This document shows positions 12,590-64,000 of a DNA stretch of 64,000 nt, one piece after another; within the stretch, counting starts at the first letter, position 1; each line of letters starts with the position of its first letter. Under the pieces are notes generated by a model that did not search any database, was not told the DNA's origin, and saw only the letters and a program-made list of their open reading frames with translations. This DNA comes from an uncultured Planctomycetaceae bacterium (GTDB taxonomy: Bacteria > Planctomycetota > Phycisphaerae > SM23-33), in NCBI GenBank assembly GCA_964631565.1, contig CAZVYJ010000009.1:4862-68861 (forward strand), read 5' to 3'. The position numbers and the translations under genes were made by a program.

Positions 12590-12850
12590 AGGGTCTGGCG
12601 TTATCGGATTGTAGCCCACGGCAGCCAGCCCGTATGGGTGAGCCGTGGGTATATGGAGCATATCTAATATAAATAAGCCCCGTAAGGGGCGGCACGTGCG
12701 TCCACGCCTGCCATAACGATTAACATTTGTGTCGCCCCTTATGGGGCTGTGTATAAACAGGCGTTTTAAGCCCAGCCCTCACGGGCTGGGCTGATATGTA
12801 AGCCTGAAATTACAGGTCAGCGGGCGCCATGGCTTGCTTGCAAGCCATGT
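12590..12850. repeat. Cluster of five GC-rich palindromic (REP-like) hairpins in an intergenic region
   Basis: cccacggc...gccgtggg; gcccc-gtaa-ggggc; gcccc-ttat-ggggc, an inverted near-copy of the previous one; gcccagccc-tcac-gggctgggc; catggcttg-ctt-caagccatg. None is followed by a T-run. Confidence 0.7.
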
Positions 12851-12886
12851 AGTCGCACAACGGTGAATATCCACGGGGAGAAAAAA

Positions 12887-14590
12887 ATGAAACGGACGCC
12901 GATAGCTGCAGCCGCCCTGCTGGCGTGCATAGCTGCATACAGTTTTCACGCAACCTTTGCCGACGAGCCGGCCGCCACAAAACCGGACGGAGAAAACGCG
13001 GAAAAACCTAACAAGTTCGGCATCACCGTCTCGAAAGAAACCACGTTCATCACCGAGCCTCTCAACGCCGACGGCACGGTGGACTATGTCGCAGCCGCCA
13101 ATAACATGCTCTCGAAGGGCGTAACGAAGGACAACAACGCGGCCGTTCTGATAATCAAGGCCTTCGGCCCGAAGTTTTTCAGAGACGAAGACCCCGCCCC
13201 CATACTGAAAGTACTCGACATAACGCTGCCGGAAGACAAAGACGGCGTTCAGTACTATCATAATTACCTGGAATACGCCAGTTTGGCATTTTCAGACAAT
13301 GAATATAAGGCAAAAATGGAGTTTCAGAAAAACATGGGGGATGCAGAACTGGCGACAGAACAGCAGAAACCTCTGACCAAAGACCAGCGGCGGTGCGCGA
13401 AAGACTGGCTACAGTCAAATGCCATGCCCCTGCAGCAACTGACGGAGGCTTCCAGCCGCCCGCAGTTTTACATTCCCTTCATACCGGAAAAAGATCCTGG
13501 CGGCGACACTGCCGTTTTTCTGAATACAAGCTATTTGGCCAACATGAGGCTGATCGCCAATACATTTCGCATGCGGGCTCTTCTGCTGGCAGACGAAGGC
13601 GAGATCGACGCGGCCATAAGAGACACATGTACAATCGCCCGCCTAGGAAACCTTGTGTCCAAGAAAAATCTGATGATTGACCGCATAGTCGGAATCTCGA
13701 TTAATGTCATGGCACACAAAACGGCCGGCTATATCGCATCGCATTGCAATCTGACCGCCGAAGAGGCAAAAAAATGCCTTACCGAATTTCAAAAAGTTCC
13801 ATCTTTACCTCCCATAACAAAGATTTTCGAATCAAACGAACGGTTCTTCGCACTCAGCTTCTGGCAGTCCTCAGCGAGATTCAGTCTGGATGAGGTTACG
13901 CTGTCTTATGCATACCCTGAAGAAGACAAAAAAATCAAAGTACCTGATGTTCAGCTCAACTGGGACATGCTGCTGAAAATGGAAAACGACTATTTTGATA
14001 AACTCGCCGAAGCCGCATCGGCAAAGACATTCAGAGAACAATACGAGAATCTCAGAAAACTGGACGGCGGCGACGAAAAGGACGATGTCATTCTAAATCC
14101 CGACGAATTCGGCGGGACAAGAGGCAAACTGAAGAAACTTATCGAAGAAATAGGCACGGATGACTGTGATAAACTGACACTAGCTATCTGGAATTTTTCC
14201 CATAAAGATTTCATTCCGACACACCGATTTTTTGCTCTCGATGCCAGGCAAACTGCAATGCGCCATCTGGCCGAAGTAGCTTTCGCGATGGCGGCTTACA
14301 AGGCGGAGAAAGGCGAGTACCCTCAGAAGCTTGCTGACCTGGCGCCGGATTATCTGAAAACCGTCCCCAACGACATCTACACAGATAAACCTCTTATATA
14401 CAGACTCGCAGATGATGGCTACGTGTTGTACAGCGTCGGCGAGGACATGAAAGACGACGGCGGCGACGAAGGGGACGATTCAGTCGAGAAAAGTCTGCTG
14501 GTCCGCGTCGGCGAAAAACCAAAAGAGGACGAATCTGTCCCGTCGCCCCAGCCTGGTCCTAATCCGCCGGCTGTTCTTCCGGGACTATAA
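12887..14590 (+). CDS. Secreted hypothetical protein with a C-terminal domain like the type II secretion pseudopilin GspG
   Basis: ATG 12887 (MKRTPIAAAALLACIAAYSFHATFA, a signal peptide) with GGGGAG 7 nt upstream. The C-terminus AMAAYKAEKGEYPQKLADLAPDYLKTVPNDIYTDKPLIYRLADDGYVLYSVGEDMKDDGGDEGDD follows the GspG C-terminal pattern (A..Y....G.YP..L..L...YL...P.DP...PY.Y......Y.L.S.G.D...GG). It lacks the prepilin N-terminal hydrophobic helix. Confidence 0.6.
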   Translation: MKRTPIAAAALLACIAAYSFHATFADEPAATKPDGENAEKPNKFGITVSKETTFITEPLNADGTVDYVAAANNMLSKGVTKDNNAAVLIIKAFGPKFFRDEDPAPILKVLDITLPEDKDGVQYYHNYLEYASLAFSDNEYKAKMEFQKNMGDAELATEQQKPLTKDQRRCAKDWLQSNAMPLQQLTEASSRPQFYIPFIPEKDPGGDTAVFLNTSYLANMRLIANTFRMRALLLADEGEIDAAIRDTCTIARLGNLVSKKNLMIDRIVGISINVMAHKTAGYIASHCNLTAEEAKKCLTEFQKVPSLPPITKIFESNERFFALSFWQSSARFSLDEVTLSYAYPEEDKKIKVPDVQLNWDMLLKMENDYFDKLAEAASAKTFREQYENLRKLDGGDEKDDVILNPDEFGGTRGKLKKLIEEIGTDDCDKLTLAIWNFSHKDFIPTHRFFALDARQTAMRHLAEVAFAMAAYKAEKGEYPQKLADLAPDYLKTVPNDIYTDKPLIYRLADDGYVLYSVGEDMKDDGGDEGDDSVEKSLLVRVGEKPKEDESVPSPQPGPNPPAVLPGL

Positions 14591-54248: not shown

Positions 54249-57122
54249 ATGACTCTCCCCCGCCTCGCAAGCGTTACAGCGGTCGTGATGTTTCTTTCAA
54301 TCATCGGCCCGGCCGACTTCGCGTTCGCCCAGCAGGCCGAAGACACCCGGCCGCTTGCCGAGCAGCCTTACATCGGGCTGCGGTTCGAGGATCATCAGCC
54401 CACCGGCGCATGCCTTGTAACGTGGGTTCTGCCCGGCCCGCTGTTCGGCGAGAAAGACCCGGCCCCGCTGGTTAACAGCGGCGACCTGATACTTAAGGTG
54501 GACGGCAAGAACCTCAAGGCCGACGAACTCCAGAAATACGTCGCGGCCAAAAAGCCCGGCGACGAGATGACGCTCACCGTCCGCTTCACGAAGATGCCGC
54601 CGAACACATACCCGTTCGCGCCGGGCGAAGGCACGGAAACGAAGGACCTGAAAATCAGGCTGGCCGCCCGCGCCGACTGGGCAGGACCGATTTCATTCCC
54701 ACGCCAAAAATATCTTCCACTCAAACCGGAAACATTGCTGGACCCAGCCAAAACGTTCAGCTTCGAAGCTCTCGTCATGCAAAAAGCCGGAGAGAACAAT
54801 CTCACCGACGCTTACAACAAGCTCTGCGGCGTGCTGAAGGAAGCCCAGAGCACGACCGTCGGCTACAACAACCTGGCCCGCGTCGCATATCCGTTTTACT
54901 ACCCGCTGCGGATGAGCGAGCTTCAGGAAGAGATAACCGCCCCGCTCGCCGATTACGCGAAGGATCCGTCCGGCATATGCAGCTACGCCGCAAAGATGCT
55001 CGACCTCAGTGCATACAAAACCAAGAATACGGAAAAGGCCAACATGTCCATTCCTCGCGATGCGCTGAAGTTTTCGGCAAAACAGGTCGCCGCGGCCAAC
55101 GAATACCTTCGCAAGGCATTCGAAAAAATTCCCGCCGACCACCGGGCCACGCTGGCCGAGGACATCGACACGCTTGTCGCCGGGCTGCCCGCCACGGTCT
55201 ACGTGGCCGGCCACAAAAACCCCGCCCGCATGATAAAAACTCTCCAGGCGAGCATGTCGATTGATTTCAGCTCTTTAATACTGGCCGCCGGTGAAATGTC
55301 GGAGCTTATACAACGCGGCACACCGCCGGCGAAGGACACCAAAACTGTCGAAATTCCGCAGGAAATGCAGAACGCCGTCACCGGCGACGTGCTGGACATC
55401 GTGCAGATTGACGGCCGATGGTACGTCTACGGCGGCTTCGGGGCGAATACATACGACATGTCGAAGATAACCGGTGTAATCGACGCAGGCGGCGACGACA
55501 CGTACAACTATCCGCAACAGGCGCCGTGGACTGTCCGCTTCATCATCGACATGGCCGGCAACGACCGTCACATCGGCTCAGCCGGTGGACCCGCTGCGGC
55601 GCTGTGTGGAATAAGCCTGCTGGTCGATTACGCCGGCGATGATTTCTACGCCGGCCAGAAACCATGCTGCGGTGCGGGCATCATGGGCGTCGGCATGCTG
55701 ATAGATTACGACGGCAACGACGAATATCAATCGCTGTACTGGTCGCAGGGCGCCGGGTTCTACGGGTTCGGCCTCATCGCCGACCTCGGCTACGGGCGCG
55801 ACCTGTACCAGTCGCAGATTATGAGCCAGGGCATCGGCGGGCCGCGCGGGCTCGGGCTGATTCTCGAACAGGGAGGCGAAGATTACTACCGCGTCAACGG
55901 ACCGGTGAAATCGTCCTACGGAACGCCCGGCGTCTACAACGCATGCAGCCAGGGCTTCGGGTTCGGCTGCCGGACTTACGAATCCGGCGGCATCGGCATC
56001 ATCGAAGACCTTGAGGGCAACGACCGCTACGACGCCGGCGAGATGGCGCAGGGCGGCGGATATTACTACGGGCTTGGCATTCTCCATGACCGCAAGGGCA
56101 ACGACAGCTACACCGGCGTCCGCTGGGCGCAGGGCTTCGGCTGCCATCAGGCGCACGGCATACTCGCCGACGACGAGGGCGATGACACGTACTACGCGCT
56201 GCAGGTCGCCATTCAGGGGTCTGCGTGGGACATCGCAGTCGGGGCACTTATCGACCGGGCCGGCAACGATTCATACCAGTGCGGCGCCGGCCTGTCGCAG
56301 GGTGGAGCTTCCATGCAGGGTGTTGCATATCTCATGGACCTCGCCGGGCGCGACAGATACATCGCACCGCCCTACGCCTCGCAGGGCAAGAGCGGCGGCA
56401 ACAGCTACCACTACGCACGGACCGGCGCGATGAGCTTTTCGGTCCTGTTCGACTCCGGCGGCGATGACGACCTTTACTCCACCGGCCGGCCCAACAACAA
56501 AACTATTTCCGTCGGCGAGCCGGATGAAAAGAACCCGGCCGAAAGTCCGCTGTACGGCCTGTTCATAGACACAGCGGGCGACGACCTGGCCGTCATGACA
56601 TTCAAGGATAGATTCCCCCGCTCGGTCAAGTGCGACAGTTCCGGACACATCACCAGCCTCGGCCTGCGCAAAGAAACTCTCACCACAGAGGCTCTCACTG
56701 AAGCCGACTTTGATATCATAGCCTCTCTGACACACCTTGAACTGCTCGCACTGAGTGAATCGAACGTCTCCGACGAGACCGTTGCGAAGCTCATGAATCT
56801 CAGGAGCCTGAAGCGGTTGTACCTGGGCGACACCGCCGTTTCTGACACCGGGTTGCGCGAACTCGCCGCCCTGTCCGAAATGGAATGGCTGGAACTTGAC
56901 AATACGAAGATTACCGGCAAAACCCTCCCGGCAATAACAAAAATGAGTAAAATTCAGCATGTGGGAATCAGCACGACGGCTGTTACCGAAGCCGATATCA
57001 GAGACCTCGCATGGCCGCTTTCGCTCAGGACTCTGGTCGTGTCACAAAATATGATTTCCAAGGCTACAATCGAGAAACTAAAGAAAGACAACCCCAATCT
57101 GGAAGTCATAATTTCAGATTGA
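54249..57122 (+). CDS. Secreted 957-aa protein: PDZ-like N-terminus, about twelve ~27-residue GND-x-Y/QG-x-G repeats (putative beta-solenoid), and C-terminal leucine-rich repeats
   Basis: Signal peptide. A PDZ-like segment (GDLILKVDGKNLKADELQKYVAAKKPGDEMTLTV). Repeats such as GNDRHIGSAGGPAAALCGISLLVDYA / GDDFYAGQKPCCGAGIMGVGMLIDYD / GNDEYQSLYWSQGAGFYGFGLIADLGY. LRRs of the form LxxLxLxxTxVSD (LELLALSESNVSDETVAKLMNLRSLKRLYLGDTAVSDTGLRELAALSEMEWLELDNTKITG). Confidence 0.6.
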   Translation: MTLPRLASVTAVVMFLSIIGPADFAFAQQAEDTRPLAEQPYIGLRFEDHQPTGACLVTWVLPGPLFGEKDPAPLVNSGDLILKVDGKNLKADELQKYVAAKKPGDEMTLTVRFTKMPPNTYPFAPGEGTETKDLKIRLAARADWAGPISFPRQKYLPLKPETLLDPAKTFSFEALVMQKAGENNLTDAYNKLCGVLKEAQSTTVGYNNLARVAYPFYYPLRMSELQEEITAPLADYAKDPSGICSYAAKMLDLSAYKTKNTEKANMSIPRDALKFSAKQVAAANEYLRKAFEKIPADHRATLAEDIDTLVAGLPATVYVAGHKNPARMIKTLQASMSIDFSSLILAAGEMSELIQRGTPPAKDTKTVEIPQEMQNAVTGDVLDIVQIDGRWYVYGGFGANTYDMSKITGVIDAGGDDTYNYPQQAPWTVRFIIDMAGNDRHIGSAGGPAAALCGISLLVDYAGDDFYAGQKPCCGAGIMGVGMLIDYDGNDEYQSLYWSQGAGFYGFGLIADLGYGRDLYQSQIMSQGIGGPRGLGLILEQGGEDYYRVNGPVKSSYGTPGVYNACSQGFGFGCRTYESGGIGIIEDLEGNDRYDAGEMAQGGGYYYGLGILHDRKGNDSYTGVRWAQGFGCHQAHGILADDEGDDTYYALQVAIQGSAWDIAVGALIDRAGNDSYQCGAGLSQGGASMQGVAYLMDLAGRDRYIAPPYASQGKSGGNSYHYARTGAMSFSVLFDSGGDDDLYSTGRPNNKTISVGEPDEKNPAESPLYGLFIDTAGDDLAVMTFKDRFPRSVKCDSSGHITSLGLRKETLTTEALTEADFDIIASLTHLELLALSESNVSDETVAKLMNLRSLKRLYLGDTAVSDTGLRELAALSEMEWLELDNTKITGKTLPAITKMSKIQHVGISTTAVTEADIRDLAWPLSLRTLVVSQNMISKATIEKLKKDNPNLEVIISD

Positions 57123-57476
57123 CTTCAGGCTAATGCCGGGCTGCCCGCAAAAAAATAACTACCGTCAGCTGGAACCAAGCACTTTTTTTGCAGCCGTCTT
57201 TGCGGACAAAAATCGTCTTTAAGACAAAAATATCCACCCGTTAATCCCCAAAAACGGAAATCTCCTGTTATGCGCAGCTCAAATTGCCCTTTAGGAATCC
57301 GTTAAGGCGACGATAAGCCTTACGGAGAGAAATATATTCACCGAGTCATTACAGGAGCATGCTGACGTACGAGTGGGTCGCACGCAGTAGTTGTTTGATA
57401 ACTTTCAGCTAATTAAGCAGTAACAGCAGACAGGCCCGCCACGGCGAATCCCCTGCCTGCGGCGGTTTTTCAGCCT

Positions 57477-58277
57477 TTGGCTATTATGGAATTACCGGTT
57501 ACACAGCATGGCAGTTTCAACACTAACCGTGAAGAAGCGGTTGTTTTGCCGTTTCCGGGTGTTTTTGATGTTCTGAATGAGGTACTCGGCGGGAGCGCCC
57601 CAAGCGATTTCGCCATGGAGATATCCCGCGCGGAAGATAACGAGCGGCAGAGAATCGCAGAAGATCTGCACGATTGCCTTGGGCAGAATATCGCGGCGCT
57701 CAGCCTGAATCTCCAGCTTCTCAACGGCAATAATCTGCCGCCCGATCAGGCCAATATCCTGACCCGGTCGCTTGCTCTTGTCAGGCAGCTCAGCCAGGAC
57801 ATAAGAACGTTTACGTTTGAGCTTTGTCCGCCGACACTGTACGAGCAGGGTATCTCAGCCGCCCTCGCACACCTGGTGGAGAATTTCCGGAAAAGATACT
57901 CGCCGCACATACAGTATCACGACGACAGCCGGCCCAAGAACATGCCGCCCGGAAAAGCGGCTTTCCTGTATCGCTCGGTTCGCGAACTGCTCATTAACGC
58001 AGTCAAACATGGCAAAGCGGACAATATCACCATCATTACCCGCACCGTCGGGCATCATGTCGAAGCAGAAGTGGAAGATGACGGCATGGGTTTCGACAGT
58101 TCGTTTGAACTCAGCCGATCCGAGAAAACCGGCTTCGGACTTTTCAGCATATCCCGCCGCCTGAAAAACTTTGGCGGGCGTCTGGATATCGACTCCGCTC
58201 CGAAGCGGGGAACAAAAATCAAAATACGACTCCCAATCGCCGCAAAAGCAGGCCGCGGAGAATTTTCAAAGTTATGA
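57477..58277 (+). CDS. Cytoplasmic histidine kinase, HisKA_3 / NarX-LiaS type, with no sensor domain
   Basis: ERQRIAEDLHDCLGQNIAAL is a HisKA_3 H-box. HATPase motifs NAVKHGKA, DDGMGF and GFGLFSI. No transmembrane segment. Confidence 0.8.
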   Translation: MAIMELPVTQHGSFNTNREEAVVLPFPGVFDVLNEVLGGSAPSDFAMEISRAEDNERQRIAEDLHDCLGQNIAALSLNLQLLNGNNLPPDQANILTRSLALVRQLSQDIRTFTFELCPPTLYEQGISAALAHLVENFRKRYSPHIQYHDDSRPKNMPPGKAAFLYRSVRELLINAVKHGKADNITIITRTVGHHVEAEVEDDGMGFDSSFELSRSEKTGFGLFSISRRLKNFGGRLDIDSAPKRGTKIKIRLPIAAKAGRGEFSKL

Positions 58278-58924
58278 CCACCAGAATACTGCTTGCAGAC
58301 GACCACACGATGGTAAGAGAAGGCATAAGCGCCTTGCTGAACAATCAACCCGGCATGACTGTCGTCGGGGAGGCGTCAAACGGCCGCGATGCGCTGCAAA
58401 TGGCCCAATCCCTCCTGCCCGATGTGGTCATCATGGACGTGTCCATGCCGGACATGAACGGAGTCAGCGCCACCGAAAAGCTCTCCGAAGTGTGCCCCGC
58501 CGCCCGCGTTCTGGCGCTGTCAATGCATACCGACCGGGATAACGTCACGCGGATGCTTCGGGCCGGCGCATCGGGATACGTGGTCAAGACCTGCGACGTT
58601 AACGAAATTCTTCGCGCCATAACCACTGTCCGCGCCGGCAGAACATACCTCAGTCCCGAAATAACCGGAACCGTGGTGGAAGATTACGTCTCGTCAAAAA
58701 ACACATCAAAGCCGGACCTGGACGATCTGACATCCAGAGAACGTGAAATCCTCCAGATGATAGCGGAAGGCAAAAGTTCCAAGCAGATAGGAACGATACT
58801 GCATATCAGTCCGAGAACCGCCGACTCGCATCGTCAGCGTATTATGGACAAACTCAACCTCTATTCGCTGGCGGAGTTGACCAAATATGCGATTCGGGCA
58901 GGACTTACATCCCTCAACACCTGA
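58274..58924 (+). CDS. NarL/FixJ-family response regulator (receiver plus LuxR-type HTH)
   Basis: Receiver motifs LLADDH, D in DVVIMD, and LSMHT. The LuxR HTH reads LTSREREILQMIAEGKSSKQIGTILHISPRTADSHRQRIMDKL. The gene overlaps the kinase stop. Confidence 0.9.
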   Translation: MTTRILLADDHTMVREGISALLNNQPGMTVVGEASNGRDALQMAQSLLPDVVIMDVSMPDMNGVSATEKLSEVCPAARVLALSMHTDRDNVTRMLRAGASGYVVKTCDVNEILRAITTVRAGRTYLSPEITGTVVEDYVSSKNTSKPDLDDLTSREREILQMIAEGKSSKQIGTILHISPRTADSHRQRIMDKLNLYSLAELTKYAIRAGLTSLNT

Positions 58925-59057
58925 CGGCAAACTCTGAATAAGCCTAAAGATAGTCATTCTCGCATCATTAATTGCGAATTCCGGCAATTACGCCTTTCCT
59001 TATATCTACCGATATCAGAAATACCTGCGGTCCGCAGTGCCAGAAAAGGACAATGCA

Positions 59058-60233
59058 ATGAGTGACTACAACGGGGAAACATCTCAAACCACAGGGCTGC
59101 TGAGGCATCTCCTCAGCATAGGAGCGAAACTGCACGGGTCCAGAACGCGGCAGGAAATGCTGGAAACCATCCTCTCGCAAGCCAGGAAATTCACGGGCGC
59201 CGAAGCTGGCAGCCTTTATCTCGTACAGAGAAATCAACTCCGATTCGTGGCCGTCCAGAACGAAACCATGGACACCTCGAACATTGTCCGCCACCTGTTC
59301 GGCCAGACCATAGCGATCTCGCCGGAGTCGCTGGCGGGGTTTGCAGCCCTGACCGGCCGAATCATAAATATCCCGGACAGCTATAATCTTCCTGAAGGCA
59401 CTCCATTCAGAATCAATCGCGAACTGGACGCCAAAACAGGTTATTCCGCCAGGAGCATACTCGCCATCCCGCTGAAATGCCCTGACGGCGTGTGCGTAGG
59501 CGTCATGCAGCTGTTCAATCGCCGCGATGCGAACGGCGGCAATCAGCCTTTCGAAGAAATAACCGATGCGTTCATCGAGGGCCTGGTTTCAACCGCAGCA
59601 ATCGCAGTGCATAATCTCAGCCTGCAGGAACAGCTCCGCAGCGTTCATCTGAACACGATATTCCGCCTGTCGACAATAGCCGAATATCGCGATGCGGACA
59701 CAGGCAACCATATTCAGCGTGTCAGCCGGATTTCGGAACTCGTCGCACGAGAACTCTCGATGCCGCCGGACCAGGTTGAACTCATAAAGTACGCCAGCCC
59801 GATGCACGATGTCGGCAAGGTAGCCGTTCCCGACGCCATACTGTTCAAACCCGGCCACCTTACCACCGAGCAGCGGAAGATCATGGAAAAACATACGATC
59901 ATAGGCGGCGAAATCTTCGAAGGCGCCGATGATGACGTACTGGTAATGGCGCAGGATGTCGCCCTGCATCATCATGAAAGATGGGACGGCAAAGGGTATC
60001 CCGACGGGCTTGCGGGAGATCAGATAGCCCTGCCAAGCCGTATTGTCGGTCTCGCCGACGTTTTCGACGCCGTTGTCTCCAGACGATGCTACAAACAGGC
60101 ATTTTCGCTTGATGTGGCGCTGGATATTCTGGATCAGGACAGCGGCAAACACTTCGATCCGGCCGTGGTCAAGGCATTCATGCAGGTGCTCGAAAGCGTG
60201 CTGGAATCCTATCCCGAACTGCGAGCCGCCTGA
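59058..60233 (+). CDS. GAF-domain HD-GYP phosphodiesterase (c-di-GMP)
   Basis: N-terminal GAF (AGSLYLV...RFVAVQN). HD motif SPMHDVGKVAVPD. HD-GYP signature HHERWDGKGYPDGL. Confidence 0.85.
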   Translation: MSDYNGETSQTTGLLRHLLSIGAKLHGSRTRQEMLETILSQARKFTGAEAGSLYLVQRNQLRFVAVQNETMDTSNIVRHLFGQTIAISPESLAGFAALTGRIINIPDSYNLPEGTPFRINRELDAKTGYSARSILAIPLKCPDGVCVGVMQLFNRRDANGGNQPFEEITDAFIEGLVSTAAIAVHNLSLQEQLRSVHLNTIFRLSTIAEYRDADTGNHIQRVSRISELVARELSMPPDQVELIKYASPMHDVGKVAVPDAILFKPGHLTTEQRKIMEKHTIIGGEIFEGADDDVLVMAQDVALHHHERWDGKGYPDGLAGDQIALPSRIVGLADVFDAVVSRRCYKQAFSLDVALDILDQDSGKHFDPAVVKAFMQVLESVLESYPELRAA

Positions 60234-60329
60234 AAACCGGCAAGCATGAAGTTCCATACACACCGGGCCGGATGACACCCCAGTCGTCCGGCCTTGTTAT
60301 GCGCACACGCCCCCTGTCTCCCCCCGCCC

Positions 60330-60368
60330 CTGCGCATTTGCGCAGCGTCAATTGCGAAATAGCGCAAT
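60330..60368. promoter_or_regulatory. Two adjacent perfect palindromes upstream of cheY; candidate operator
   Basis: CTGCGCA-ttt-GCGCAG at 60330-60345. ATTGCG-aaatag-CGCAAT at 60351-60368. They lie about 70 bp upstream of the cheY start. Confidence 0.4.
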
Positions 60369-60437
60369 TACGGACCCATCACCGATTTCCGATGACTGTT
60401 GCAGCGACTATACCCAAGAACCAGGAGAACCAGAAAA

Positions 60438-60881
60438 ATGAACATTCACGCGATGGTGGTAGATGACTCAGCGATCATGAGAAAAATGGTCATGAAGTCC
60501 CTCAAGGAAACTGAGTTGGCCGACTTCATCTTTACCGAGGCCGGCGACGGCGTGGAAGCCCTTCAAAAACTCGACCCCAAGTCAGTAGGCATTATGTTCG
60601 TCGACTGGAATATGCCGAATATGACAGGCATAGAACTTGTCCGGGCCGTTCGTTCAACTCACAAGAAGTACCCGATACCGATCGTCATGATTACAACCGA
60701 AGGCACCATGGAGCGGGTTGAGGAAGCTCTCGATAACGCCGGCGCCAACGGTTATGTGGTCAAACCCTTCACGCCGGAAATACTCAAGAAAAAGCTGGCG
60801 CCGCTTTTTGAACAGATCGGCAACGACAAGGGTAAATCAAAAGGATTCTTTGGGAAGCTGGCTACGAAGCTGGCTTCATAA
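60438..60881 (+). CDS. cheY: CheY-like single-domain response regulator with a ~25-aa basic C-terminal extension
   Basis: ATG 60438 with AGGAGAA upstream. Receiver residues are VVDDS, D in FVDWNMPNMTG, T in MITTEG, K in VVKPF. The tail is FEQIGNDKGKSKGFFGKLATKLAS. Confidence 0.85.
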   Translation: MNIHAMVVDDSAIMRKMVMKSLKETELADFIFTEAGDGVEALQKLDPKSVGIMFVDWNMPNMTGIELVRAVRSTHKKYPIPIVMITTEGTMERVEEALDNAGANGYVVKPFTPEILKKKLAPLFEQIGNDKGKSKGFFGKLATKLAS

Positions 60882-60935
60882 AACGGGAACCGAAGAACAT
60901 TCACTATTTCTCTGGAGAGACCTAATGACACCGAC
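60803..60935 (+). repeat. Direct repeat copy 1: the 3' end of cheY (its tail), the spacer, and the first codons of cheX1
   Basis: About 70% nucleotide identity to 61441-61577, including the non-coding spacer (...TCTCTGGAGAGAC.TAATGA.ACCGACC...). Confidence 0.75.
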
Positions 60936-61521
60936 CACCATTCAGCAGGGACCTGCAGTAGAGCATAAGGAATGTCTTGGACTGGCCGTAAAGAAAATTT
61001 TTCGGACGGCTTGCGGGGCGGAGCTTAAAACGCTTAAAAGCACCCCTGATACCGACGGCAGCGTCATTGTTGGAATGATATCGCTGTCCGGCGACCTGAA
61101 CTGGTCGATATTCATAGGTCTTTCAAGCGAAACCGCCTCGTCACTGATCTCAAAATTCTTCGGGTTCGAAATTCCCTTCGACAGCGATGACATGTGCGAC
61201 GCCGCAGGCGAACTGGCAAGTATTCTCGCCGGGGAAATAAAAACCCAGCTCAGCCGCCGCGGAATAAAAGTCAACCTTTCGCTGCCGAGCGCCATACGCG
61301 CAAAAAATGTTTATATCCCCAGACAAAACGAGTCGGACACCTTCAGGCTCAGCCTCGGAACGTCCGGCGGCAATCTCTGGGCTGGCATCACGACGCGAAG
61401 TATCGGCATTGTCAAAACCCTCGCGTCCAAAACAGTCAAGCCCCCTTTTGAACAAATAAACGGCGACAACGGCGAATCAGAAGAAACTTTCGTAAAGCAG
61501 GCCGCAAAGCTGGCCTCATAG
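60925..61521 (+). CDS. cheX: CheX-family chemotaxis phosphatase, paralogue 1, with a C-terminal tail homologous to the CheY tail
   Basis: The CheC/CheX/FliY-like core has EIPFDSDDM...GELASILAGEIK...GNLWAGITT. The tail is PPFEQINGDNGESEETFVKQAAKLAS. Confidence 0.7.
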   Translation: MTPTTIQQGPAVEHKECLGLAVKKIFRTACGAELKTLKSTPDTDGSVIVGMISLSGDLNWSIFIGLSSETASSLISKFFGFEIPFDSDDMCDAAGELASILAGEIKTQLSRRGIKVNLSLPSAIRAKNVYIPRQNESDTFRLSLGTSGGNLWAGITTRSIGIVKTLASKTVKPPFEQINGDNGESEETFVKQAAKLAS

Positions 61522-61577
61522 AACAGGAACTTAAAGCGAACACGGAGATTCTCTGGAGAGACATAAATGAGACCGAC
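61441..61577 (+). repeat. Direct repeat copy 2: the 3' end of cheX1 (its tail), the spacer, and the first codons of cheX2
   Basis: See copy 1. Confidence 0.75.
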
Positions 61578-62064
61578 CGACACAAAGCAGAATCATCTGG
61601 CAGAGCACCAGGAATGCCTTGGGCTGGCCGCCAAAGAAATTTTCCATGCAACATGCGGTGTGGAGCTTCAGCCGCTCGAAGACGCGACACCAACTGACGG
61701 AGGCGTCATCATTGCCCTTATTTCGCTGGTGGGAGACGTTGACTGGTCAATATTCCTGGGCCTGCCGCGGAGCACTGCTTCTCCGCTGACAGCCAAATTC
61801 TGCGGGTTCGAAATTCCCTTCGACAGCGATGACATGGGCGATGCCGTCGGCGAACTGACGAACATCCTCGCCGGTGAAGTCAAGGCCAGACTCGACAGGC
61901 AGGGAGTCAAGGCGAACATCTCGCTGCCGAGCGTGATACGTGCAGAAAGCATTCACGTACTCAAGCAAAGTTCGGTTGAAACGTTCAAGCTCTGTTTCGG
62001 CACGCCGCAGGGCAACCTCTGGGCGGGCATCACGACGCACAAAAACGGAGCCTTCGCAGCGTAA
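61567..62064 (+). CDS. cheX: CheX-family chemotaxis phosphatase, paralogue 2 (no tail)
   Basis: About 65% identical to paralogue 1 over the core. Same motifs. Confidence 0.7.
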   Translation: MRPTDTKQNHLAEHQECLGLAAKEIFHATCGVELQPLEDATPTDGGVIIALISLVGDVDWSIFLGLPRSTASPLTAKFCGFEIPFDSDDMGDAVGELTNILAGEVKARLDRQGVKANISLPSVIRAESIHVLKQSSVETFKLCFGTPQGNLWAGITTHKNGAFAA

Positions 62065-62108
62065 ATAAGCACGGTAAACGGGCAGCATCGGCTCAAGGAA
62101 GCCACGAC

Positions 62109-64000
62109 ATGGATTGCAAAAACAAATCATACGACGTTCTCAACGCACTCAGCGCCGAGATTCTTGCCGCAGACCCTGCCGACAAGGACGCCGTCGTCGG
62201 CATAGGCTCGTCTCTGGAAGGTTTTCTTGACAAGGCCGACGGCATGCCGGCTGAGCTTGAAAAACTCTTTTCCGTCGCCCTCGAGCTGCTCCAGTGCGTT
62301 TATGGCGAAAGCCTGCCCGACCCTGCAGCGGCAATGGAAGCGGTCGCAACCGCAGTAAGCGCCGCAGCCGAATTTCTCGCCGACGGCGGCGACAGTCAAT
62401 CGCTGCAGGCCGTCGCGGCAACCATGCAAAAAATGCTCTCGCTCTCCAAAGACGGCGACGCCCCTGCCGCCGCCAGCCAGCCCGACAATCAGCCACAGAA
62501 GCCGCAGGCGACAAACGCCCCGGCACAAAACACAACCTCGGAAACCAATCTGCTTCCGGGCGATACCGACATGGACCTGCTGAGCGAGTTCATAGTCGAA
62601 TGTCTCGATCACATCGCCGCAGCCGAGGCCGCCCTGCTGGAACTCGAAAGCAACCCTGACGACGCCGAGCAGATAAACACTATTTTCCGCGCGTTCCACA
62701 CCATCAAAGGCACGTCGGGCTTCCTCGGCCTGAACCTCGTCCAGAACCTGGCCCACAAGGCCGAAAACCTGCTGGACCGCGCCCGCGACGGCGAAATAAA
62801 AATCCAGGGCGGATACGCCGACCTGGCGCTGAAATCCAGCGACGCCCTGCGGACGATGATATCCGGTCTCGAAGGCGTCAAGCCGGGCGATAAGCTCACG
62901 CCGCCGGCATACTATGACGACCTGATGACCCAGCTTGCCGATCCGGAAGCCGCCGGAATCAGCGATGAAGCCAATGTCGAAGACATGCGGCTGGGCGACA
63001 TCCTCGTCGGCAAGGGTCAGGCAAAGCGATCCCAGGTTGAAGCGGCAGCCAAAAAACAAGGCTCGCAGCGCATAGGCCAGGTGCTCGTCGAAAACAATAT
63101 CGCAACCGCCGGCGAAGTTATCGACGCCGTCCGCACGCAGAAAAAAATATCCGGCCGCCAGACCGGCGAAAACACCATTCGCGTCGGAACCGACCGGCTC
63201 GACAATCTGGTCAACATGGTGGGCGAACTGGTGATAGCCCATTCGATGGTCACGCAGGACCCCGACGTATGCAACAACGCAAGCCCCAGACTCGCCAGAA
63301 ACGTATCGCACGCCGGCAAGATCATTCGGGAACTCCAGGACCTTGCCATGTCGCTGCGCATGGTGCCGCTGAAGGGAACGTTCCAGAAAATGAACCGCCT
63401 TGTCCGCGATCTCGCCCGCAAGGCAGGCAAGAGCGTCCAGTTCATCACGGAAGGCGAAGAAACCGAAATAGACCGGACAATGGTTGAAACGCTCGGCGAC
63501 CCGCTGGTTCACATGATGCGCAACGCCGTGGATCACGGTATCGAAACCGCAGAGGTGCGGAAGGCCAGAGGCAAGAGCGGCACGGGAACAATCACGCTGA
63601 GAGCCTACCACTCCGCCGGCAACGTCGTCATCGAACTGCAGGACGACGGCAAGGGTCTCGATAAAGACAAGATCATCGCCAAGGCCGTCGAACGCGGGCT
63701 GATCGAATCCGCCAAGGACATGACTGAAAGCGAAGTGTTCGCGCTTATCTTCCAGGCGGGCTTCTCGACCGCCGAAAAGGTAACCGACATATCAGGCCGC
63801 GGCGTGGGAATGGATGTGGTGAAACGCGGCATCGAATCGCTGCGAGGAAAAATCGAACTTGCGTCAAAACTCAACAAAGGCACGACCTTCACGGTGCGCC
63901 TGCCGCTGACGATGGCGATTACGGACGCCATGCTCATACGCGTCGGCAGCGAGCGGTACCTGCTGCCGACAATCTCCATCGAGCGCAGCTTCCGTCCGGA
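62109..64000 (+). CDS. cheA: Chemotaxis histidine kinase CheA, 5' portion; the gene continues past the right edge of the window
   Basis: The track does not list it because there is no stop codon in the window. The frame from ATG 62109 gives the Hpt motif FHTIKGTSGFLG, a long P2/linker, the dimerisation region, N-box HMMRNAVDHGIE, G1 DDGKGLD and G2 GRGVGMDVV. The track's 62127..63611 minus ORF is antisense junk. Confidence 0.85.
   Translation, partial: MDCKNKSYDVLNALSAEILAADPADKDAVVGIGSSLEGFLDKADGMPAELEKLFSVALELLQCVYGESLPDPAAAMEAVATAVSAAAEFLADGGDSQSLQAVAATMQKMLSLSKDGDAPAAASQPDNQPQKPQATNAPAQNTTSETNLLPGDTDMDLLSEFIVECLDHIAAAEAALLELESNPDDAEQINTIFRAFHTIKGTSGFLGLNLVQNLAHKAENLLDRARDGEIKIQGGYADLALKSSDALRTMISGLEGVKPGDKLTPPAYYDDLMTQLADPEAAGISDEANVEDMRLGDILVGKGQAKRSQVEAAAKKQGSQRIGQVLVENNIATAGEVIDAVRTQKKISGRQTGENTIRVGTDRLDNLVNMVGELVIAHSMVTQDPDVCNNASPRLARNVSHAGKIIRELQDLAMSLRMVPLKGTFQKMNRLVRDLARKAGKSVQFITEGEETEIDRTMVETLGDPLVHMMRNAVDHGIETAEVRKARGKSGTGTITLRAYHSAGNVVIELQDDGKGLDKDKIIAKAVERGLIESAKDMTESEVFALIFQAGFSTAEKVTDISGRGVGMDVVKRGIESLRGKIELASKLNKGTTFTVRLPLTMAITDAMLIRVGSERYLLPTISIERSFRP

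Follow-up and report, generated by a model that had tools for sequence, protein, structure and literature searches.

An MshEN_N-like module in the linker of CheA, and an upstream box shared with a GAF-HD-GYP gene, at the che locus of an uncultured planctomycete

The 3' part of a 64,000-nt stretch of contig CAZVYJ010000009.1, from an uncultured Planctomycetaceae bacterium (the whole stretch is referred to here as the window, and all coordinates are those of the window), carries a NarL-type two-component system, a gene for a GAF-HD-GYP protein and the first genes of a chemotaxis (che) operon. The region examined runs from approximately 57.4 kb to the end of the window on the + strand and contains seven consecutive + strand open reading frames (ORFs). 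An initial annotation, made from the sequence alone, had listed these seven genes with their domains, including the placement of the GAF-HD-GYP gene directly upstream of cheY, cheX, cheX and cheA, and every domain it named was recovered in our Pfam analysis. Related proteins are labelled as Phycisphaerae or Planctomycetes metagenome-assembled genomes, and the best match in a scan of a genome collection was 59% identical. We consider it likely that the region comprises three adjacent transcription units (the kinase-regulator pair, the single GAF-HD-GYP gene and the start of the che operon) rather than one module. Two of its features, a module between the P1 and P3 domains of CheA that resembles the MshEN_N domain binding cyclic di-GMP (c-di-GMP), and a promoter/operator box that precedes both the GAF-HD-GYP gene and cheY, form the main subject of this report. 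The features of the region are as follows (aa, amino acids).

57486-58277, + strand: cytoplasmic HisKA_3 histidine kinase without a sensor domain, 263 aa (Pfam HisKA_3 4.4e-11, HATPase_c 1.1e-15).
58274-58924, + strand: NarL/LuxR-type response regulator with a receiver (REC) and a GerE helix-turn-helix domain (Pfam Response_reg 1.6e-28, GerE 1.4e-19).
58970-59013, + strand: promoter/operator box 1, AATTGCGAATTCCGGCAATTACG-N16-CCGAT; it ends 45 nt ahead of the HD-GYP start codon (ATG at 59058).
59058-60233, + strand: putative GAF-HD-GYP phosphodiesterase, PmGH-like, 391 aa (Pfam HD_5 3e-35, GAF 1e-12).
60350-60393, + strand: promoter/operator box 2, AATTGCGAAATAGCGCAATTACG-N16-CCGAT; it ends 45 nt ahead of the cheY start codon (ATG at 60438).
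60438-60881, + strand: CheY, 147 aa, a single-domain receiver with a 25-aa C-terminal tail (Pfam Response_reg 2.4e-24).
60800-62079, + strand: 640-bp tandem duplication of two units (approximately 60800-61439 and 61440-62079), from repeat and column-identity analysis.
60925-61521, + strand: CheX1, the diverged extra copy (Pfam CheX 1.2e-12).
61567-62064, + strand: CheX2, the conserved orthologue (Pfam CheX 1.4e-13).
62109-64000, + strand: cheA, 630 of 771 aa before the window ends (100% identical full-length protein P0001).
62109-62453, + strand: CheA aa 1-115, pseudo-P1 (AlphaFold2 with a predicted local distance difference test score (pLDDT) of 89.2, and Foldseek).
62574-62870, + strand: CheA aa 156-254, P1 (Hpt) with the FRAFHTIKG motif (Pfam Hpt 5.2e-16).
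62988-63140, + strand: CheA aa 294-344, MshEN_N-like module (profile search, AlphaFold2 and Foldseek).
63171-63911, + strand: CheA P3 (aa 355-415) and P4 (aa 464-601) (Pfam H-kinase_dim 4e-16, HATPase_c 3.7e-21).

Domain analysis revealed that CheA is built in the order pseudo-P1, P1, MshEN_N-like four-helix module and P3-P4-P5. No P2 domain was detected by Pfam on the full CheA, and nothing meaningful was returned for its N-terminus and linker at E values up to 10. AlphaFold2 modelling suggested that aa 1-115 form a five-helix bundle with the Hpt fold, of which the top Foldseek matches are CheA P1 domains, namely 1i5n (template modelling (TM) score 0.69, probability 1.00) and 3kyi, and profile-profile comparison (hhalign) gave a weak match to the Hpt region of the same protein. 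Where P1 has FRAFHTIKG, this N-terminal domain has an invariant G...E and no His, and it is designated a pseudo-P1 because it has the Hpt fold without the phospho-accepting His. A sequence search of the PDB with the N-terminal profile returned designed helical proteins only, and the P1-like fold came from structure prediction.

The module at aa 294-344 consists of motif 1 (RLGDILVGKGQAKRSQVEAAAKKQ), the spacer GSQ and motif 2 (RIGQVLVENNIATAGEVIDAVRTQ), and it is kept in all 120 listed orthologous CheAs (at least 120 clusters). Searching a 44-sequence profile of the module against the PDB gave matches to the GSPII domain 6f8l of Thermus PilF (9.3e-14), the c-di-GMP-binding PilF domain 8pfa (9e-5) and Vibrio MshE 5htl (6.7e-4), and also to PilB proteins. 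The AlphaFold2 model comprises four helices (pLDDT 86), and the top 15 Foldseek matches are all MshEN, GSPII or PilB N-terminal structures (TM 0.65-0.77), led by the c-di-GMP-bound forms of PilF-GSPIIB and MshE with a root-mean-square deviation (rmsd) of approximately 1.0 Å (TM 0.75-0.77). In the next-closest CheAs (L001 from Planctomycetia, L002, L003 and L008) the module is absent and the linkers are of low complexity. Since these proteins have no P2 either, the module is an insertion into a CheA lineage without P2 and not a diverged P2. What had been described in the initial annotation as a long P2-like linker thus resolves into the 115-aa N-terminal pseudo-P1 and the MshEN_N-like module between P1 and P3.

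Carriers of the module are not confined to CheA, and an exhaustive profile search with the module did not separate CheAs from the other carriers. The best matches among 1.84 billion representatives (P0136, P0137, P0149 and others) fall outside CheA: each has 5-9 modules in tandem, and several of these proteins also carry Hpt, such as P0136, a protein of 782 aa with two Hpt stretches and nine modules. Pfam labels the repeats in these tandem-module proteins DUF4388 and not T2SSE_N. A family combining Hpt with module arrays seems to exist and may bear on the function of the module.

The window ends inside cheA, which accounts for the lack of cheW, methyl-accepting chemotaxis protein (MCP), cheR and cheB genes within it. 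The full-length CheA on record (P0001, 771 aa) is 100% identical to the window fragment, and a Logan contig from the same organism (L013, 100% identical) extends the operon beyond the window. On this contig, the CheW-like P5 domain of CheA, the part that the window fragment lacks, was located by Pfam at aa 607-734, and a cheW encoding 170 aa begins 16 bp after cheA. The product of the next gene has a transmembrane segment and matches Cache_3-Cache_2 (E 5.5e-58); the contig stops within this gene, before any MCPsignal domain. MCPsignal genes occupy the position of this Cache receptor gene in orthologous loci. The full-length CheA has the Hpt (P1), dimerisation (P3), kinase (P4) and CheW-like (P5) domains that mark a CheA of a Che pathway.

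Nine orthologous loci, with CheAs 58-63% identical to that of the window, share the common order cheY-cheX-cheA-cheW-(MCP)-cheR-cheD-cheY-cheX-cheB-CBS, which is complete in L016/17, L075, L077 and L079 and split in L014; L080 has no cheW in the operon, and L076 and L078 are cut off. These operons hold two CheY-CheX pairs plus CheD, CheR and CheB. In every one of them cheY is the opening gene, and the window CheY is 58-66% identical to the products of these cheY genes. In two of the nine loci flagellar genes adjoin the operon, with flagellin-fliD-fliS directly upstream of cheY in L075 and fliS-fliD just downstream of the operon in L077. A small CBS-domain gene after cheB closes the che operons of L014, L016, L075, L077 and L079.

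It is likely that the window end holds the first genes of the conserved, complete che operon of this clade. The operon of the window continues with cheW and a Cache-type receptor gene and is predicted, by orthology, to go on with cheR-cheD-cheY-cheX-cheB-CBS. To be set against this, a search further downstream with the 240-aa receptor fragment gave no 100% match, so that the part past the receptor gene is taken from orthology. The che operon of the clade is probably flagellar, the flagellum being the target we infer. The initial annotation had described a compact che-like module, with no cheW, MCP, cheR or cheB gene before the window ends. The absence holds inside the window and not beyond it, and the genes turn out to be the start of an ordinary operon, as evidenced by L013 and the nine orthologous loci. 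It had further reasoned that a standard gene set and flagellar genes immediately downstream of cheA, combined with orthologous operons that always lack the HD-GYP and two-component genes, would leave ordinary flagellar chemotaxis with chance neighbours. Extension downstream of cheA did yield cheW and the Cache receptor gene in the same organism, with cheR and cheB found in orthologous loci only. The upstream genes do recur at orthologous operons, with a NarL orthologue at L076 and L079 and the order HD-GYP-cheY-cheX-cheA at L022. The case shows how an ordinary operon that is cut by the edge of a window can pass for something minimal and exotic.

The two-component genes that open the region proved to be as initially annotated, a sensorless cytoplasmic HisKA_3 kinase overlapping a LuxR-type regulator. 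The kinase has only approximately 55 residues ahead of its H-box. Its gene has an alternative TTG start at 57477, and the length of 263 aa was also obtained in an independent gene call on Logan contig L012. The ATG of the regulator gene overlaps the kinase TGA by 4 bp, as ATGA (58274-58277), and the two genes are translationally coupled. The H-box EDLHD of the kinase and the receiver Asp residues of the regulator are readable in the translations, and the pairing of HisKA_3 with REC-GerE is that of a NarL-type two-component system.

Related regulators are present at other che loci. In L076, an orthologous kinase-NarL pair lies directly upstream of cheY (NarL 54% and kinase core 42% identical); the L076 kinase has REC and PAS domains in front, of which no remnant is present upstream of the window kinase. 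In L079 (GCA_030642005.1), a NarL orthologue (51% identical, 12610-13263) is located after cheB-CBS at the 3' end of the operon, and a related palindrome, AATCGCAG-N4-CTGCGATT, lies approximately 150 nt upstream of cheY. The NarL orthologue of L079 is followed by a gene of more than 400 aa without annotation. At a distant Planctomycetia locus, L001, the genes for a histidine kinase, NarL, CheA and CheW follow one another in this order.

The boxes before the HD-GYP gene and cheY are in register, each approximately 45 nt long and each ending at the same distance from its ATG. They were also returned independently by the repeat finder (D3) with a spacing of 1380, the distance between the two ATGs (59058 and 60438). 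When the two intergenic regions are compared without gaps, the best 60-nt stretch has 36/60 identical positions, compared to 26.9 ± 1.4 (maximum 32) in 300 shuffles, approximately 6.5 standard deviations above. The cheY box contains the perfect palindrome ATTGCG-N6-CGCAAT. The same box is located upstream of cheY in L076 (TTGCGTAGCCCCGCAATCACG-N16-TCGAT) and in L022, and the composite pattern has no other match in 849 kb comprising the window and the loci. L014, L016, L075 and L077, in which cheY has no NarL-type gene beside it, do not contain this pattern. The regulator is found again at other che loci, not always at the same place, and the box accompanies it; on these grounds we infer that the NarL-type regulator is the best candidate for the box-binding protein. 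Given a guessed transcription start, the geometry of the box would be compatible with an activator site that covers part of the -35 region.

Several points weigh against the significance of the box. The pattern was defined after the sites had been seen. With 6 occurrences in the window versus 5.7 expected, the palindrome TTGCG-N6-CGCAA by itself shows no enrichment, and only the longer composite is specific. Neither a sigma-70 promoter scan nor a terminator scan gave enrichment over shuffles. A sigma-28 (FliA) promoter was considered as well and is not claimed: GCCGATAA-like elements (CCGATAT, CCGATGA, GCCGATAA and GCCGATTT) are found upstream of cheY in several loci, with no consistent -35 TAAA at the right spacing, as judged by eye. 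Upstream of the kinase gene (57271-57330) there is a weaker, differently spaced relative of the box, TGCGCAGCTCAAATTGC, which is 82% identical to the cheY copy and is followed by GACGATAA; it could reflect autoregulation of the two-component pair.

The GAF-HD-GYP gene, for which an alternative GTG start is present at 59037, encodes a protein that matches PmGH (4mcw) over both GAF and HD-GYP (E 9e-72). The HD motif (MHDVGK) and HHERWDGKGYP are intact, also in alignment with PA4781 (4r8z), and these residues place the protein in the active type. In its GAF domain it is similar to GAFs of the cyclic-nucleotide type (PDE5, PDE2 and CyaB2; E approximately 1e-12). With regard to the substrate, HD-GYP enzymes specific for 3'3'-cyclic GMP-AMP exist, and 5z7c is among the structure matches of the window protein. 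No receiver (Response_reg) domain was found in the protein by Pfam, so CheA cannot phosphorylate or drive it. A Wsp-like pathway would have a GGDEF, EAL or HD-GYP output enzyme fused to a receiver, and there is no GGDEF, EAL or PilZ gene among the window ORFs scanned. Close orthologues are 63-68% identical and have varying neighbours; the shared box is absent from the loci L019-L021. L022, in which the order HD-GYP-cheY-cheX-cheA is repeated, is a 2.2-kb metagenome contig, and its end (1955-2210) reads as the N-terminus of cheA (MSDERTIADLLDGLAAEALAADPAD) followed by the reverse complement of a cheY-like sequence, a structure that is probably chimeric or inverted. The genes after the HD-GYP orthologues in L019 (5318-7420) and L021 (3850-4326) appear CBS-like by eye from their N-termini only; in L019 this gene is also weakly similar to HD-GYP.

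The two cheX genes are the result of a lineage-specific 640-bp tandem duplication. The duplicated unit consists of the last approximately 80 nt of cheY, a 44-nt spacer and the cheX body, as evidenced by a mean column identity of 82% across the junction regions and by repeats D1 and D11 with spacings of 640/641, and all orthologous loci have a single cheX at the corresponding place. CheX1 and CheX2 are 57% identical in protein and approximately 70-80% in DNA. CheX2 is 49-65% identical to the orthologues and CheX1 40-47%. In CheX2, the phosphatase motif D/S-x3-E-x2-N, followed by P approximately 22 residues on, is retained: DAVGELTN aligns to DAVGEVTN of the CheX structures 3h4y and 3hm4, and the downstream LP is present. 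CheX1 departs from this motif while its fold family is still CheX, its active site reading DAAGELAS with the catalytic Asn replaced by Ser. In the alignment of 13 CheX proteins (A4), all sequences share D92, E96 and P121, and 12 of them have N99, CheX1 being the sole exception. In the CheC/CheX/FliY family, loss of the active-site Asn should cripple catalysis. Because this residue is lost, CheX1 is, as judged from its sequence, probably a weakened phosphatase or a binder of phosphorylated CheY (CheY-P). The two CheX phosphatases of the initial annotation are thus two real genes, one of which lacks the catalytic Asn, and the pair is a tandem duplication.

The position of the duplication junction also gave CheX1 a C-terminus copied from the CheY tail, FEQINGDNGESEETFVKQAAKLAS (61446-61521) versus FEQIGNDKGKSKGFFGKLATKLAS in CheY (60806-60881). 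Orthologous CheYs are of similar length (approximately 144-145 aa), so the 25-aa tail FEQIGNDKGKSKGFFGKLATKLAS may be conserved. An exact look-up of the CheX2 protein found no record. That the cheX-cheX arrangement is an assembly artefact is highly improbable. An independent Logan assembly (run DRR321573) does break exactly between the copies, L012 ending in cheX1 and L013 starting in cheX2. However, copies of this divergence are not collapsible repeats, CheX1 is its own ORF with a distinct tail, and copy-specific sequence is found at 100% identity on both contigs (CheX1 aa 1-87 on L012 and CheX2 aa 81-165 on L013). Since each Logan contig carries copy-specific sequence, the duplication is treated as real. 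A diverged duplication was apparently sufficient to fragment the short-read assembly between cheX1 and cheX2.

A connection between this locus and c-di-GMP would run through the CheA module and the box shared by the HD-GYP gene and cheY. The relaxed MshEN_N motif consists of two tandem 24-residue stretches, [RKPN]hGxxhhxx[GAS]hhxxxxhxxxhxx[QNKRYWST], separated by a short spacer (Wang et al. 2016, PMC5013675). Each motif of the module fits 10 of the 11 relaxed positions, the exceptions being Q at position 11 in motif 1 and N at position 10 in motif 2, and 66 of the 120 listed orthologues have at least one motif that fits the relaxed pattern fully. In MshEN, contacts to the ligand are made by Leu residues and by the Arg at the start and the Gln at the end of each motif (Wang et al. 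2016, PMC5013675). Both opening Arg and both closing Gln residues are present in the module of the window CheA, and the module profile shows conservation of at least 90% in the clade for the first Arg, for the two Gly and for the last Gln. A fragment of Aeromonas veronii CheA (EKB11881, residues 261-390) has a Kd of 2.6 µM for c-di-GMP (supplementary table, Wang et al. 2016, PMC5013675), and it binds in spite of having no first Arg and a longer spacer. This kind of architecture is therefore already known.

Other observations argue against binding. Pfam T2SSE_N (PF05157) has no match to the window segment at E values up to 10 and none to any of the 44 orthologue segments, 20 of which weakly match DUF4388. 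The spacer between the motifs is 3 residues and not 5, two Leu positions per motif are occupied by Val or Ala, and the opening Arg of motif 2 is variable in the clade. Two further points count against the wider reading: the Foldseek E values of the module are only approximately 0.08, because the module is short, and all 120 listed orthologous CheAs carry the module whatever their neighbours. On this analysis, binding of c-di-GMP by the window CheA may be proposed, with caution. A broader and more novel reading is that the CheA of this clade is itself a c-di-GMP receptor whose module gates the delivery of P1, and that in this lineage the NarL-type system co-induces the HD-GYP gene and the che operon, setting the c-di-GMP level that CheA would see. 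We regard it as possible and put it forward tentatively. If it is true, c-di-GMP would act at the kinase step, a point of entry other than the motor (via YcgR), the methyltransferase (via MapZ) and the receptors (PilZ-MCPs). No study was found in the literature on what c-di-GMP binding does to the kinase in a CheA with MshEN_N.

Alternatively, the locus may encode ordinary flagellar chemotaxis beside unrelated neighbours, the module being a structural spacer or a dock for a protein (for example CheY, there being no P2) that does not bind c-di-GMP; this, too, is a doubtful though possible explanation. In its favour, che genes are missing from the surroundings of three (L019, L020 and L021) of the four HD-GYP orthologue loci that are informative, and seven orthologous che loci with a readable upstream region are without HD-GYP (L014/15, L016/17, L075, L076, L077, L078 and L080). 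The homologous N-terminal domains of secretion and pilus ATPases can bind proteins without nucleotide, the PilB N-terminus-PilZ structure 7lkm being among the fold matches, and, as stated by Wang et al. 2016 (PMC5013675), XpsE no longer binds c-di-GMP. The missing T2SSE_N call, the short spacer and the substituted hydrophobic contact positions point in the same direction. Against it stand an in-register box before the HD-GYP gene and cheY that is far above chance, a NarL orthologue at three che loci in two different positions, the retention of the polar-contact Arg and Gln residues of MshEN, and best structural matches that are c-di-GMP-bound forms.

A non-flagellar chemosensory pathway with c-di-GMP turnover or another second messenger as its output, as suggested in the initial annotation, would be analogous to Wsp-type systems; it is largely refuted and very improbable: the HD-GYP gene does lie directly upstream of cheY, also in L022, and c-di-GMP-related modules are present both beside and inside CheA, but the HD-GYP protein has a GAF domain in place of any receiver that CheA could phosphorylate, the operon is complete and conserved, with pairs of single-domain CheY and CheX as are typical for control of the motor, the orthologous operons of L075 and L077 lie beside flagellin, fliD and fliS, and the apparent lack of cheW and MCP genes comes from the window end. 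The c-di-GMP link drawn in that annotation fails as an output of the pathway; as an input to chemotaxis or as co-regulation, through the CheA module and the shared box, it is plausible.

For the likely reading of the region as three transcription units, the following working is proposed. The phosphorylated NarL-type regulator would bind the 18-bp palindrome ATTGCG-N6-CGCAAT, present at the same position before the HD-GYP gene and cheY, and would thereby induce the phosphodiesterase jointly with the chemotaxis proteins. The enzyme would lower c-di-GMP, its activity perhaps tuned by a ligand of the GAF domain. CheA may sense c-di-GMP directly via the MshEN_N-like module in the P1-P3 linker, and c-di-GMP may then modulate kinase output, most simply by restraining the mobility of P1. 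CheY-P would be removed by CheX2, with CheX1 in its probable weakened or CheY-P-binding role.

The remaining ORFs scanned in the window are housekeeping and transport genes, with no flagellar, GGDEF, EAL or PilZ gene among them. Directly upstream of the region (54249-57122) is a gene for a secreted-looking protein of 957 aa, which matches PDZ weakly and contains long repeats rich in Gly, Asp and Tyr and, at its C-terminus, leucine-rich repeats. None of the Pfam families reaches its threshold in this protein, and the gene is kept on the Logan contig.

Cross-talk between c-di-GMP and chemotaxis is already known at the motor, the methyltransferase, some receptors and recruited phosphodiesterases. 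The practical value of the present locus is limited, since the organism is known only from metagenomes. It is a natural test case, with at least 120 CheA clusters that have a conserved MshEN_N-like insert and no P2, and with sister CheAs lacking the insert that can serve as controls. The active-type HD-GYP gene of this lineage shares its promoter box with cheY, and a candidate regulator is encoded next door.

Several characterised systems resemble parts of this locus. PmGH of Persephonella marina (4mcw) has the same two-domain architecture as the HD-GYP protein and all HD...HHExxDGxGYP motifs, whereas the window gene adjoins a che operon with which it has a promoter box in common. The CheC/CheX/FliY operons with CheD of Thermotoga, spirochaetes and Desulfovibrio (1xko, 3hzh and 3h4y) are comparable in that CheX2 keeps D-x3-E-x2-N...P and pairs with a single-domain CheY, and in that the orthologous operons of the window locus also carry CheD, CheR and CheB. 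They differ from the present case, where two CheY-CheX pairs are joined, in this lineage, by a third CheX without the catalytic Asn and with a CheY-derived tail. According to a summary in PMC10118264, the Pseudomonas phosphodiesterase Pch is recruited and activated by CheA, and the Vibrio cholerae PilZ protein PlzC acts through CheX (PMC12799141). In both, a c-di-GMP phosphodiesterase or effector is tied to core chemotaxis proteins, there by EAL and PilZ proteins and protein contacts, and at the window locus, as suggested here, by a putative receptor-type module in CheA and by transcriptional coupling of the HD-GYP gene.

With MshE (5htl) and Thermus PilF (8pdk, 8pfa and 9glg), the CheA module shares tandem 24-residue motifs of the RLGxxLVxxG...LxxxLxxQ type and a four-helix bundle (rmsd approximately 1 Å). 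Unlike these proteins, the window CheA has only the helical N-subdomain, placed within a kinase linker and not heading an ATPase, and its module is not detected by Pfam T2SSE_N, its weak Pfam affinity being to DUF4388. The closest counterpart is the CheA of A. veronii, with an MshEN_N-type four-helix module between P1 and P3 and, in both proteins, motifs that are degenerate compared to MshE. Aeromonas keeps the CheY-binding P2 and has a longer spacer than the 3 residues found here, whereas the window CheA has no P2 and adds the N-terminal pseudo-P1. CheA-MshEN_N proteins have been listed for Actinobacteria and Proteobacteria and not for Planctomycetota (Wang et al. 2016, Nat Commun 7:12481, PMC5013675). 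The window locus is a modest variant of an architecture that has already been described and, in Aeromonas, partly tested.

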